Below, in pieces: positions 32,194 through 39,444 of a DNA stretch of 64,000 nucleotides (its first letter is position 1; every line of letters starts with the position of its first letter). Source of the DNA: Alphaproteobacteria bacterium (GTDB taxonomy: Bacteria > Pseudomonadota > Alphaproteobacteria > Rs-D84); NCBI GenBank assembly GCA_017451625.1, contig JAFTNY010000033.1:13800-77799 (forward strand), read 5' to 3'. The position numbers and the translations under genes are program-made. A model generated the notes under the pieces. That model was not told the origin of the DNA. It did not search any database and saw only the letters and a program-made list of their open reading frames with translations.

Positions 32194-32703
32194 TTAATAT
32201 CGTCCAATACACCCCAGATATGAATTGCCGGTCGATTCCAGTACATTTATAAACTGGCTTTGGTTTCTGCCTGAAAACAGTGCCAATATTGTCCCTGCAT
32301 CTGTGGCCAGCATATCAGCCACCGTTGCAATACCTGAATTCATCTTTTTGAAAAATCCACTGGTTGGGTATATTTCTGCCGCCAACAGTTGTGTCTGTCC
32401 CCGCGGTTTTGCGTTTTTCTGGGATTCAATAACCATCAGTTGGCATTCTGGCGAAATAATCACTTTGTCAGACACGATTCCATCACCCCCCAACAGTTCG
32501 CCCCACCAACCGGTTGATTCGCAGAACACAGGGTAATAAATCACCGCATTCGGATTGTCGGCCAAGATGGTCGCAATGTCGACATCGTCTGAACATACAT
32601 CAGGCATAACGCCCGTTGCATTATTGATAACTTTGCGTGCCAACTGGTATTCACAATCCCCAGTTGTCTTGCGTGGCCAGTAAAGAATCGGAAACTTTGT
32701 CAT
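32194..32703 (-). CDS. Hypothetical protein
   Basis: 169 aa with no motif I can assign. Confidence 0.35.
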   Translation of the reverse strand: MTKFPILYWPRKTTGDCEYQLARKVINNATGVMPDVCSDDVDIATILADNPNAVIYYPVFCESTGWWGELLGGDGIVSDKVIISPECQLMVIESQKNAKPRGQTQLLAAEIYPTSGFFKKMNSGIATVADMLATDAGTILALFSGRNQSQFINVLESTGNSYLGCIGRY

Positions 32704-32771
32704 TGCTATGAATTATATCAGATTCGGTGCATGCAAAAAAGGGGGGCAGGTTAAATAAAGCACTTGATTTT

Positions 32772-34061
32772 TTATTTTTTTATCGCGGCGTACCATTTTT
32801 TCAGGTTTTCCCACACAATATTGGCGTTCTTTTTTGCTGTGTCATAGAAGTCTGTTGATACCTGAACCTTAAACAAAGTCTTGGACAGGGCCGGAATCAT
32901 TGTCATAAACATTGCAAAGAATATCCCCATCAAAACAATTGTTATCAAACTGTCATTGCGCATCATCAGTGCATCCATCAAAAATTTCGAATCGTTTTGA
33001 CTTAACGCGGTCGCCAATGCTGGCGCGCCCGCCCAGTCGCCAAACACCGCGTCCAAGAACATAATTGCAAACGAAACAAATATACCTGTGATTGCCAATG
33101 CAAATGTTGCACTGATAACATAATCAACAATTCCACGAATCGTTTTTCCGGCCCCTGCCAGTGAAATTTTCCACCCTTTGAACAGCCACGCCAACAGCAT
33201 CAACGGCAACATAACCAGATCCATTGACAGTGTTATAAATATCTCTAAAAAGTACATCGGAATCGGCAACAGTGCCATAAAGAACAGCACCAATATCGCC
33301 AGTCCTGCAAAAAACAGAATAACGTTTGGGAAAATTGGAATGTCCCACAAAATTTTATGCATATAGTCTGCATCAAACGCCATATTCAGCATTGTCCACC
33401 CGACCGTCATCCCCAGACCCGTCATCTGATGCACGCCGGCCAATTCACACGCCAGATTGTGGCGCAGTCGTGGTGAAAACGCCCCCGCGTTTGCCGCATT
33501 TGTATCAACCGACACTGGATCTGCGATTGCCGTCGCGACGACACATGCATCAAAGGTATCGTCATGCACAACCGCGCGATTCAGCGACAGCCCGACATTG
33601 AAAATTGGTTCAATCGCGATTTCAGAAATCATTCGTGGCAATGGCGCGACCAAAAACGCGCACACAATCCCCAATCGTACCAGATGGTTTGTAAACGTGC
33701 TGGCCAGCGACCATGGCTGTTCTGTCTTGGCGTTCAAGAATCCGTCCATCAATCGCCATGCAAACCATATCGCAGACAGCATTATTGCAAACGGGATTAT
33801 TGTATGCCCCAGTGCATCGTAAATTCGCGGCAAGATGCCCGACATGGTTGCCATAACGTCTGAAAACATTTGGCATGACCAGCAACTGGAAAAGAATTGA
33901 TATGCGTCCGCCATGCTGACCGGCACTGCAGATCGATATATTGAAAAACCGGCAATAACGCCGACACCGGCGATGCCTGCGATAACAAATGGTGCCACCG
34001 CCCCCGCCGTCCATGGCAAGAACGATAAAAACACAATCCAAAATTTTTTTAACCGGCTCAT
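32772..34061 (-). CDS. Polytopic membrane protein, paralog 1 of a 5-member tandem family (tentatively VirB6/TrbL-like)
   Basis: ATG at 34061 ('MSRLKKFWIV...'); 'SSCWSCQMFSDV' C-x-x-C...F motif, then multiple TM helices. The Lys-rich amphipathic C-terminus ('...WENLKKWYAAIKK') is shared with the paralogs. Confidence 0.55.
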   Translation of the reverse strand: MSRLKKFWIVFLSFLPWTAGAVAPFVIAGIAGVGVIAGFSIYRSAVPVSMADAYQFFSSCWSCQMFSDVMATMSGILPRIYDALGHTIIPFAIMLSAIWFAWRLMDGFLNAKTEQPWSLASTFTNHLVRLGIVCAFLVAPLPRMISEIAIEPIFNVGLSLNRAVVHDDTFDACVVATAIADPVSVDTNAANAGAFSPRLRHNLACELAGVHQMTGLGMTVGWTMLNMAFDADYMHKILWDIPIFPNVILFFAGLAILVLFFMALLPIPMYFLEIFITLSMDLVMLPLMLLAWLFKGWKISLAGAGKTIRGIVDYVISATFALAITGIFVSFAIMFLDAVFGDWAGAPALATALSQNDSKFLMDALMMRNDSLITIVLMGIFFAMFMTMIPALSKTLFKVQVSTDFYDTAKKNANIVWENLKKWYAAIKK

Positions 34062-34071
34062 TGTTTTTAAG

Positions 34072-34101
34072 TATATCACATTTTGTCCCAAATGTGATAT
34101 A
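34072..34101. promoter_or_regulatory. Perfect 12-bp inverted repeat in divergent promoter region between paralog 1 and paralog 2
   Basis: 'tatatcacattt-gtccc-aaatgtgatata' centred in the 68-bp intergenic region. Confidence 0.5.
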
Positions 34102-34129
34102 ATTGAAATGATAAATATAAAAGCCGAGA

Positions 34130-35404
34130 ATGTATTTGTTGAAAAAAATATTATGTACGCTGATATTTGCTGCGGTGTTTTGCACGCCGGTATCTGCGTA
34201 CGCAGACAACAGTATTATTGATGCTTTGAATTTGGCACCGTTTGTTCCACTGGTGTTGGATGCGTTGATGACGGTTGCCACAGGTGGCTATGAATACTTT
34301 GTTGGCCATGACGGCCATGGAATTATCTATGTATTTATTTGGATTTTCTTGGGTACAACAATTTTATTGTCATTGGTAAAAATGTACTGGCCGCAACAGT
34401 GGCTGGGGTTTGTCGGTCTGTCCGGTGGTGGCGAAATTGCCGCTGGTAAAACAAACGGATATAAAGTCATCGAAAACACAGCCAAGCCCGCATTTCGCGC
34501 ATTGATTGCTGCAATCTTTTTATTACAGGTACAACCAACGTTTTTGACCCAGTGGCTGGTTAATCCGTTTTTACAGTTGGGTGCAGTCTATACGCATCAC
34601 ATCACAGACCAGATAAACGAATCGGGCGTGTCTGCGCCTGCGGTGGCATGTCCCTATGACGTTGTCGATAATGCATGGTTGACCCCAGAATCGTGCGAAT
34701 TTCTGGTTCAGCCGGTGGCAGATTTATCGCATGCAAACAACCAGATTGTAAAACGTGGCTTTGAATTTATCACGCGTGGTCTGCGCGGGCTGATAACATT
34801 GGTGCCGCATGGTGGCGCGGACTTTATGAATCTGATAACGGGGATTTTATTGGTCTTTACCTTTGTGTCCAGTAATTTGTTTATGGCACTGCTGATTATC
34901 CAAGGAATATTTAATTTTGGAATGCAGTTAATTTTGTATCCGTTTTATGTTCTGACCTATGTTATGAAGTCCAGCGATAAATGGTTCGACATATGGCCGG
35001 TATTCAGTGGTATAACCAAGGCCCTGCAACAACTGATTATAACAATGATTGCGTGTGGTTTTATTTTGTGTGTTAACTTGGCGATAATCAAGGCCCTGTT
35101 CCAGTGGGACACGTCCATATTTGTTGTTGCCGCCGGTGGCACCGCCACCAGTAATGTTCCAACCACTGCAAATTCTGCAATGGGATTTGGCGAACATTCA
35201 CTGACGTGGATGTCGGCAATATTGACGTTCTATTTGATGTTCAAGATATTTGATATGACGCAAAAGCAACTGCAAAAATACATCGGCGGTGGAATGGATG
35301 GGCTGTATAAACAGGTAAAATCTGATGCAGGCACAATGACATCTAATCTTAAAAATTGGGGCCAGAAAATCGGCACAGCAATCGGTTGGTTAAAGAAAAA
35401 ATAA
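34130..35404 (+). CDS. Polytopic membrane protein, paralog 2 (signal peptide + multi-TM)
   Basis: Signal peptide 'MYLLKKILCTLIFAAVFCTPVSAYA'. Conserved 'NPFLQLGAVYTHH' segment; C-terminal '...NWGQKIGTAIGWLKKK'. Confidence 0.55.
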   Translation: MYLLKKILCTLIFAAVFCTPVSAYADNSIIDALNLAPFVPLVLDALMTVATGGYEYFVGHDGHGIIYVFIWIFLGTTILLSLVKMYWPQQWLGFVGLSGGGEIAAGKTNGYKVIENTAKPAFRALIAAIFLLQVQPTFLTQWLVNPFLQLGAVYTHHITDQINESGVSAPAVACPYDVVDNAWLTPESCEFLVQPVADLSHANNQIVKRGFEFITRGLRGLITLVPHGGADFMNLITGILLVFTFVSSNLFMALLIIQGIFNFGMQLILYPFYVLTYVMKSSDKWFDIWPVFSGITKALQQLIITMIACGFILCVNLAIIKALFQWDTSIFVVAAGGTATSNVPTTANSAMGFGEHSLTWMSAILTFYLMFKIFDMTQKQLQKYIGGGMDGLYKQVKSDAGTMTSNLKNWGQKIGTAIGWLKKK

Positions 35405-38129: not shown

Positions 38130-39386
38130 ATGGTGATTGGCGTGGCAACAACTGCGTTTGGTGCGGCATCAAATGTCCCAATGCCGGACGTAGGCGATTA
38201 CGGCACGTGGGCGACCGAAAACAATCGGCAACTGTTTGTGTCTGAATTAACCAGTGATGTCGACAGTTTCAGTGGCAACTTTCAATCCCAACTGGTCCAA
38301 GACTATGTCCCAATCGAGGCAAAGATTGGTCTAATGTTCATGAATGCAATGTCGTTTGTGGCCGACGTTCTGGATTCATCATTGGTGCGATTTGTTATTA
38401 TATTTATGTTTGTTGTGTTTGCGTTTTGGATTGCGTTTGAAACATACAATATGATGATTTCCGGCAAAGGTAAAACCCAAGAATTGTTTACCAGCATTGC
38501 AAAAAAAGGTCTGTTAATTGTCGTATGGGTTATCGTATTGCGATTTGGACCGGCCCAGATATTTATGTGGATTATGGGCCCGATTATCAGTGTTGCCACA
38601 TACGTATCAGATATTATTTTGAACAGTGTTGCGCACAGTGCCGGTGTATCCTTGCCAGATACCTGTGCGGCAATTCGTGAATACGCCGCCGCGCACACAT
38701 CGACAAACAGTATCATTGATGCCACCGCCGCCGCAGATATGATGTGCGTGCCAACGCGTCTGTCTGGTTTTTGCTATACGGCGGTGGCCACTGGGTTGCA
38801 GTGGATGAAACTGGGCATTGGGCACAGTGCGTTTACATTTGTTGTTGGGCTGGTTTTCGTGGTGATGTTTATTGTCATCGCGTGGAAGTTTGCGTTTATC
38901 GCGCTGGGGGTAATTGCAGATTTATTCTTGGGCGTGATGATGTTGCCGTTTACAGCAATAAACGAAACTGTCGGCAAGACATCGTACAAAGGAATGGTCG
39001 GCGATATATTTAACCAGTTTTTATCAATATTCAGCGTCAGTTCTATTGAAAGTTTGGTAAATAAATTCATCAATGCGGCGGTGTATTTTGTTTCTCTGTC
39101 TATCGTTGTGGCATTTTGTGCTGCGCTGATGTCCAGTATTATACCAGATTTGTCTGGCAATATACCTGCACTGGAAAATCAGGGATTTTGGATAACGCTG
39201 TTGGTGGCGGGATTAACGTTGCATTTTGCAAATCGCGCCCAGTCAATTGCCAAAGATATATCAGGTGGCATGTCGGTGAATACTGGTTTTGGTGATCGTG
39301 TGCGCGGCGATATAACCACCTTGTGGAACAAGACATATGGCACCGCCAAAAATTGGTGGAAGATTATTCGCGATGGCAAGAAATAA
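38130..39386 (+). CDS. Polytopic membrane protein, paralog 5
   Basis: Same architecture and C-terminal '...NWWKIIRDGKK'; it lacks the CxxC. Confidence 0.5.
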   Translation: MVIGVATTAFGAASNVPMPDVGDYGTWATENNRQLFVSELTSDVDSFSGNFQSQLVQDYVPIEAKIGLMFMNAMSFVADVLDSSLVRFVIIFMFVVFAFWIAFETYNMMISGKGKTQELFTSIAKKGLLIVVWVIVLRFGPAQIFMWIMGPIISVATYVSDIILNSVAHSAGVSLPDTCAAIREYAAAHTSTNSIIDATAAADMMCVPTRLSGFCYTAVATGLQWMKLGIGHSAFTFVVGLVFVVMFIVIAWKFAFIALGVIADLFLGVMMLPFTAINETVGKTSYKGMVGDIFNQFLSIFSVSSIESLVNKFINAAVYFVSLSIVVAFCAALMSSIIPDLSGNIPALENQGFWITLLVAGLTLHFANRAQSIAKDISGGMSVNTGFGDRVRGDITTLWNKTYGTAKNWWKIIRDGKK

Positions 39387-39444
39387 TATACAAAAACACT
39401 AATGACTAATCTGTTTTTTTATGATATAATCGATTGAAAAAGAA

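Follow-up and report, generated by a model that had tools for sequence, protein, structure and literature searches.

The long perfect palindrome that separates two divergently transcribed units of membrane-protein paralogs in the small genome (about 0.9 Mb) of a Candidatus Enterousia, a gut alphaproteobacterium of the order Rs-D84, is probably formed by two extended -10 promoters that abut and are deeply conserved, and for which the transcription start sites are predicted. By every sequence criterion that we tested, each half of the palindrome belongs to the extended -10 promoter class, its activity being predicted. The element is most likely a compact promoter pair, the docking site of a dedicated regulator being a less likely alternative, and on the comparative evidence it is real and functional, and of an ordinary kind. 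Positions are given throughout in the coordinates of the window, by which we mean the whole 64,000-nucleotide (64-kb) stretch of DNA that was analysed, and the features are collected in Table 1.

Positions 34072-34101 of the window sequence read TATATCACATTT-TGTCCC-AAATGTGATATA, with 12-nt arms at 34072-34083 and 34090-34101 that are complementary at 12 of 12 positions, as a preliminary description of this DNA had claimed for a perfect 12-bp inverted repeat. The coordinates of the 30-nt site were given correctly in that description, but its 5-nt spacer, gtccc, had lost one T, and the real spacer is the 6-nt TGTCCC. The site does lie where it had been placed, in the 68 bp (34062-34129) that separate the start codons of paralog 1 (ATG at 34061, minus strand) and paralog 2 (ATG at 34130, plus strand), forming the core of the divergent promoter region. 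When two mismatches are admitted, the repeat extends to 19-nt arms (34065-34083 and 34090-34108) with 89% complementarity.

Table 1. Features of the divergent promoter region and its flanking genes, in window coordinates.
Feature	Position	Strand	Remarks
Left arm, TATATCACATTT	34072..34083		minus-strand reading AAATGTGATATA
Spacer, TGTCCC (6 nt)	34084..34089		T34084 invariant, G34085 88% conserved, 34086-34089 variable between species (72 unique orthologous sequences)
Right arm, AAATGTGATATA	34090..34101		from window sequence and ortholog columns
Extended imperfect inverted repeat	34065..34108		two opposed copies of a ~20-nt module, AAATGTGATATAMTTRAAAA
Leftward extended -10 module, AAAATGTGATATACT	34070..34084	minus	predicted; promoter scan 9/12
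Parts of leftward module		minus	TATACT 34075-34070; TG 34078-34077; TRTG 34080-34077; AAT at -19 to -17, 34082-34080
Rightward extended -10 module, AAATGTGATATAAT	34090..34103	plus	predicted; promoter scan 10/12; instance of AATnTGnTATAAT
Parts of rightward module		plus	TRTG 34093-34096; TG 34095-34096; TATAAT 34098-34103
Conserved stretch after right -10, TTGAAATGATAAA here, consensus TTGAAAAGATAAA	34104..34116	plus	TTGA invariant, then conserved AAAGATAAA
ATG of paralog 1	34059..34061	minus	8 nt downstream of left -10 hexamer
Paralog 1, membrane protein, 429 aa	32772..34061	minus	leftward transcription unit
Paralogs 2-5, 424, 397, 495 and 418 aa	34130..39386	plus	tightly packed; rightward transcription unit
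Cys-rich secreted-type protein, 754 aa	39445..41709	plus	
ORF169 promoter, AATCTGATATAAT	32712..32724	minus	comparator outside the palindrome; 8 nt before ATG of ORF169 (ORF169, 32194-32703)

An extended -10 element consists of -15TGn-13, or in its longer form -17TRTG-14, upstream of the hexamer, and the consensus TGnTATAAT does not need a -35 element (PMC2613000). Read on its own strand, each arm of the palindrome carries T-G-T-G-A-TATA(A/C)T and faces its own gene. A promoter scan, which scored matches to the sigma-70 consensus out of 12, made two predictions that fall exactly on the two arms: on the plus strand ATCACA-17-TATAAT at 34075-34103 (10/12), and on the minus strand ATCACA-17-TATACT at 34098-34070 (9/12), each with a TG upstream of its -10 hexamer. 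Both arms have the TG at -15/-14 and a hexamer with T-12, A-11 and T-7; both also have the orientation to, and distance from, a downstream gene that are expected of such promoters, and the motif recurs at other genes in the genome. In the window, TGnTATAAT was observed 14 times compared to 2.7 expected, and AATnTGnTATAAT five times compared to 0.02 expected. The intergenic instances lie mostly 7-42 nt upstream of start codons, including those of ORFs 6519, 32703, 48220 and 48356.

To follow the element across species we used one genome per species, giving 80 orthologous loci that are mostly labelled Candidatus Enterousia or uncultured Alphaproteobacteria, and across which paralog 2 shows 60-74% identity. 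The intergenic element was found in 78 of the 80 loci. In a gap-free alignment of 72 unique sequences, positions 34065-34084 and 34090-34106 were almost invariant while the centre (34086-34089) and the leader (34116-34129) had diverged, indicating that the element is functional and has been under strong purifying selection. In the left arm the TG, T-12, A-11, T-10, A-9, T-7 and the A/T run from -21 to -17 were fixed (TG, T-12, A-11 and T-7 in 72 of 72 sequences), and variation was confined to -16 (G in 26, A in 47), -13 (A in 51, G in 22) and -8 (C in 54, A in 12, G in 7). These variable positions are the R and the n of TRTGn, which occurs as TATGA, TGTGA, TATGG and TGTGG, together with the -8 base, the only one at which the left hexamer differs across species (TATACT in 54, TATAAT in 12, TATAGT in 7) and a weakly recognised base of the sigma-70 -10 hexamer. 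The right arm kept a perfect TGnTATAAT in every species, with 34095-34106 invariant in all 72 sequences, and was nearly invariant at -16 and -13, where the left arm is free to vary. No relaxation of the right arm was seen in those species whose left hexamer is a perfect TATAAT, although variants among the orthologous sites were too few for a firm comparison. Among 61 unique orthologous sites, the two arms differed by no mismatch in 13, by one in 35 and by two in 13, and T34084 was invariant, yet its dyad partner at 34089 was C or T and not A. Judged from these alignments, what is conserved is the fit of each arm to the promoter consensus, rather than the symmetry between them.

Some of the conservation goes beyond what a textbook promoter would hold, namely the A at -20 in both arms, T34084, G34085 and the near-fixed spacing of 6 nt between the arms. 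The conserved stretch that follows the right hexamer, at 34104-34116, presumably represents the discriminator, the start site (about 34110-34112) and the first transcribed bases, and its conservation exceeds the normal needs of a discriminator and start site. Position 34109 is a T in the present genome, which gives rise to an upstream, in-frame ATG (34109), and only four of the 72 sequences share this base. The one relative in which the pair is separated (L084) carries a 324-aa gene between paralogs 1 and 2; there, paralog 2 retains TATGATATAAT followed by 7 nt and the ATG, and a partner half-site was not found at the corresponding distance from the paralog 2 motif. By this comparison of sequences, the palindrome is present only where the two promoters abut.

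The promoter of ORF169, the gene that always adjoins paralog 1, provides a comparator outside the palindrome. It is non-palindromic, and AAT-n-TG-A-TATAAT-T is common to it and the arms. Its motif, CCGAATCTGATATAATTCATAnCAATG, is kept in 77 of 79 species, as deeply as the arms are, and in 74 of 75 unique sequences the ATG of ORF169 stands 8 nt after the hexamer, which is a leaderless arrangement. Because this non-palindromic promoter is equally conserved, the conservation over the full length of the arms, including the AAT at -19 to -17, needs no operator. ORF169 itself has no family assignment, and its promoter motif (32704-32724, minus strand) includes GAATC, a GANTC (CcrM-type) methylation site.

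Related motifs were seen elsewhere in the window. A second divergent pair at 48228-48266 combines TGGTATAAT on the minus strand, which stands 7 nt upstream of the ATG at 48220, with TGATATAAT on the plus strand; the motifs are separated by 21 nt, and the pair has the same back-to-back design with a looser spacing and without a long palindrome. Start codons stand 6-9 nt after a TGnTATAAT-type hexamer at several genes (48228-48236, 32712-32720 and 34070-34078, all on the minus strand). Perfect copies of AATCTGrTATAAT also lie antisense inside paralog 5 (39138-39150, minus strand) and inside the Cys-rich gene (41224-41236, minus strand), and TGnTATAAT is antisense in these two regions in only five and two, respectively, of the 78 other species; by this distribution the copies are lineage-specific, and they are possibly spurious antisense promoters.

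We propose that the palindrome consists of two extended -10 modules (consensus AATnTGnTATAAT-T) in a back-to-back arrangement, the 12-nt arms being 6 nt apart. Of these modules, the right one, TGTGATATAAT (-10 at 34098-34103), would drive paralogs 2-5 and probably the Cys-rich gene, with a leader of about 20 nt, and the left copy, TGTGATATACT on the minus strand (-10 at 34075-34070), would drive paralog 1 from a start at its ATG or 1-2 nt before it, producing a leaderless mRNA. The starts are predicted at 34061-34063 for the leftward promoter (minus strand) and at about 34110-34112 for the rightward one (plus strand), a distance of 47-51 bp. Of 73 unique orthologous sequences, 47 have 8 nt and 17 have 7 nt between the left hexamer and the ATG of paralog 1, so the paralog 1 mRNA would be leaderless or nearly leaderless, and the distance from the right hexamer to the ATG of paralog 2 is 26 nt here and 24-28 nt in most species. 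Public records disagree on the start of paralog 1, giving a protein of 435 aa from a GTG at 34079 in four records and one of 429 aa from the ATG at 34061 in two (L001-L006). Since the ATG is conserved and fits the promoter geometry, we favour the start at 34061 over the GTG inside the palindrome, and the public gene calls that begin at this GTG would thereby be corrected.

The two modules would be offset by 18 bp, such that the TGTGAT of each arm sits at the weak -35-like ATCACA of the opposite promoter, with a spacer of 17 bp. Since open complexes protect DNA from about -55 to +20 (PMC2613000), two polymerases should be unable to occupy this 50-bp cassette at once. The two units would then compete when both promoters are highly active, and in E. 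coli bidirectional promoters competition was found only under strong transcription (PMC12825309). A consensus TGnTATAAT needs no -35 element (PMC2613000), which may be why the -35-like positions of the right promoter, located in the left arm, have drifted. The left promoter, being the weaker of the two (TATACT), may depend on its own -35-like ATCACA, which is the TGTGAT of the right arm, and we propose that this overlap explains why the right arm is fixed at -16 and -13, positions at which the polymerase should tolerate change. It is conceivable that the 50-bp cassette does more than house two independent promoters, in that admitting one polymerase at a time sets how much paralog 1 is made relative to paralogs 2-5 or acts as a stochastic switch between them, and that a factor reading the AAAT/ATTTT shoulders could bias the choice, although we hold this extension to be distinctly unlikely. 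If true, it would mean a regulator-poor control of surface-protein composition, kept genus-wide, in a bacterium that has a reduced genome and depends on a host or partner.

The palindrome had been interpreted in the preliminary description as the footprint of a dimeric repressor or activator, and our analysis does not support that interpretation, given arms that match promoter motifs, an absence of significant covariation between them and a perfect repeat in only 13 of 61 sites. In its most specific form, this alternative holds that a dimeric (or two-dimer) factor binds the dyad TCAYATTT-N6-AAATRTGA, covers both -10 elements, and represses paralog 1 and paralogs 2-5 together. We consider it rather improbable, even though the dyad is perfect in this genome (12 of 12 positions), the spacing between the arms is fixed in 59 of 61 unique sites, the AAAT/ATTTT positions beside the variable centre are invariant, and conservation runs a few bases past the canonical promoter elements (A at -20, T34084, G34085 and TTGAAAAGATAAA). 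Moreover, all five species with A at the R position of the right arm have the matching T in the left arm. However, covariation between the arms was not significant over the whole set (Fisher p = 0.16), 79% of the orthologous sites are imperfect palindromes, and the constraint is not symmetric, the variable positions being those at which polymerase recognition is degenerate and differing between the arms. All conserved arm positions except -20 are also common to the non-palindromic ORF169 promoter, and L084 retains a promoter without the dyad. The TGTGA/TCACA cores lie 17 bp apart from centre to centre, or about 1.6 helical turns, a spacing that is awkward for a single dimer. No second dyad occurs in the 64-kb window (about 7% of the genome), nor in sequence totalling 1.36 Mb that comes mostly from related syntenic loci, and the eight proteins scanned around the site gave no match to a DNA-binding family. 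The 9-mer half-site was found in the window only at the two arms, and in 16 scattered copies in 1.19 Mb of related sequence. A metagenome scan for TCACATTT-N6-AAATGTGA returned at least 120 stretches and was swamped by chance matches; among the matches listed, only one (L119) was the Enterousia site, the other 119 being palindromes without relation to it, from marine, soil and other samples. Known regulator sites were also compared. Each arm holds an exact 8-nt half-site, AAATGTGA, of the CRP consensus, AAATGTGA-N6-TCACATTT, and the gap is likewise 6 nt. A CRP/FNR-type site was rejected, as the half-sites here are everted (TCACATTT-N6-AAATGTGA, reading TCACA...TGTGA with 12 nt between the pentamers), and the positions where the proper partner half-sites would stand (34062-34069 and 34104-34111) do not match. 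Nor does the site fit a DnaA box, the CtrA site (TTAA-N7-TTAA), the alphaproteobacterial LexA site, a Fur box, the RirA site or a TyrR box, as judged from their consensus sequences.

The repeat could instead have been selected for its structure, either as a cruciform that extrudes under negative supercoiling or as a hairpin in read-through RNA. Divergent transcription generates negative supercoils between promoters, and as single-stranded DNA the region 34062-34112 folds at -10.2 kcal/mol, with z = -5.8 relative to shuffled sequences. Against such a role, which we regard as very improbable, the mismatches between the arms are uncompensated in most species, 48 of the 61 sites carrying one or two of them. 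A C-to-T change would pair as G-U in the plus-strand RNA alone, and a T-to-C change in the minus-strand RNA alone, which leaves neither strand with an intact stem. In addition, the repeat would be untranscribed if the predicted promoters are right, and no known structured RNA family in Rfam matched it at E <= 1. An intrinsic terminator was rejected, as the repeat is without a G+C-rich stem or T-run, was not flagged by a terminator scan, and is located between start codons that diverge; the GC skew does not turn near 34 kb, which makes a replication origin unlikely. That the palindrome arose by chance in A+T-rich intergenic DNA and has no function of its own is barely credible. The region is indeed A+T-rich, and the -10 consensus itself is nearly self-complementary. 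However, none of 100 shuffles of the window matched the 30-nt pattern, even with up to three mismatches allowed, and for perfect 12-nt inverted repeats whose spacer is at most 12 nt, the expectation per 64 kb from a first-order Markov model is 0.13, compared to four such loci in the window, two of which are terminator-type G+C-rich stems flanked by A/T runs. The near-invariance of the block in 78 of 80 species, set against the divergence of the adjacent leader and centre, also speaks against chance. Another perfect 12-nt inverted repeat in the window, at 44289-44333, consists of TGTCAGCATAAA and TTTATGCTGACA around an 11-nt loop and directly follows TGTGATAGAAT, which resembles an extended -10. 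Its RNA form has a folding energy of -16.8 kcal/mol (z = -5.4), with the SD-like GGAAAGGA in its loop and the ATG of an MraY-like gene (44325) within its 3' arm, and it may represent a hairpin for translational control.

The reading as a pair of abutting promoters can be compared with several known systems. Overlapping back-to-back divergent promoters in bacteria were reportedly reviewed by Beck and Warren in 1988. In Tn10 tetA/tetR and E. coli bioA/bioBFCD, the overlapping divergent promoters contain operators for TetR and BirA, which are encoded at or near the locus. As in that class, the opposed sigma-70 promoters predicted here share tens of base pairs in a very short intergenic region, and polymerase at one promoter would cover the other. 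Unlike in those systems, no regulator is evident here, and the two -10 modules suffice to explain the symmetry. The bidirectional promoters described by Warman et al. (2021; 2026, PMC12825309) share with our predicted promoter pair their pseudo-symmetry, the divergent transcription and the exclusion of one binding event by the other. In that class, however, a single -10 element is shared, the starts being located inside it or on either side of it at a typical distance of 18, 10 or 23 bp from each other (PMC12825309), whereas the Enterousia site has two separate hexamers (34070-34075 and 34098-34103) with 22 bp between them and predicted starts 47-51 bp apart, and therefore does not belong to the class in the sense of those authors. 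In sequence, the site resembles extended -10 promoters such as galP1 and the Gram-positive '-16 region' promoters, TRTGnTATAAT (PMC2613000), in which a single base likewise separates the TG from a hexamer that is at or near consensus, and which have a poor or dispensable -35 element. Both arms fit T-R-T-G-n-TATAAT. The Enterousia modules differ from these in occurring in an alphaproteobacterium with a reduced genome, in the extra conserved AA at -19/-18 and T at -6, and in their frequent position only 7-8 nt from the ATG, a leaderless arrangement.

The five flanking membrane proteins had been called paralogs from the sequence, and this was borne out, the relationship being remote (20-24% identity). 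Comparisons of paralogs 1 and 3, 4 and 5, and 2 and 5 gave E values of 2e-16, 5e-7 and 1e-3, respectively, and none of the five matched a Pfam or NCBIfam family. The order of the five polytopic membrane paralogs, followed by the Cys-rich protein, is kept across the genus. The gene for the Cys-rich protein is probably the last of the rightward unit; it has its own TATGATATAAT at 39420-39430, and a counterpart was found in only two of 78 other species. Homologues of paralog 2 number in the hundreds in gut metagenomes, with identical copies on contigs that have the same gene order. One contig with an Enterousia-type locus and the same palindrome (L083, CAVGNU010000001.1) is titled 'Bacteroides fragilis isolate H07647-L1_cleanbin_000047', and is likely mis-binned or mislabelled. 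An AlphaFold model of paralog 2 (pLDDT 63) had its best PDB fold matches, which are weak (E 0.035, TM 0.31-0.50), to TrwI/VirB6 of R388. An hhalign comparison of the paralog with A. fabrum VirB6 gave a probability of 0.3%, no signal of Pfam TrbL was found in the paralogs, and no other T4SS genes were found near the paralog array. The paralogs are possibly VirB6-like, which we offer as a lead only, from a non-significant match of a modelled fold.

The palindrome provides a worked example of how a long, perfect repeat in a divergent region may arise purely from two abutting near-consensus promoters, and it warns that symmetry by itself is no sufficient ground for calling an operator. The order Rs-D84, to which Enterousia belongs, is uncultured; Enterousia genomes measure about 0.75-1.0 Mb and lack the TCA cycle and respiratory chain (PMC12306168). 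These genomes are rich in hypothetical membrane proteins, and such 'hypothetical membrane-bound proteins' have been suggested as possible mediators of transport or cell-cell interaction (PMC12306168). The paralog array described here is one of them, and is now marked as a locus under unusually tight transcriptional constraint. Our results also offer a first, purely computational view of promoter architecture in this uncultured gut lineage with its reduced genome, in which the predicted promoters would be built on TGnTATAAT with an AAT at -19 to -17, would have little or no -35 element, and would often start transcription without a leader. The sequences suggest that leaderless mRNAs are common in Candidatus Enterousia.
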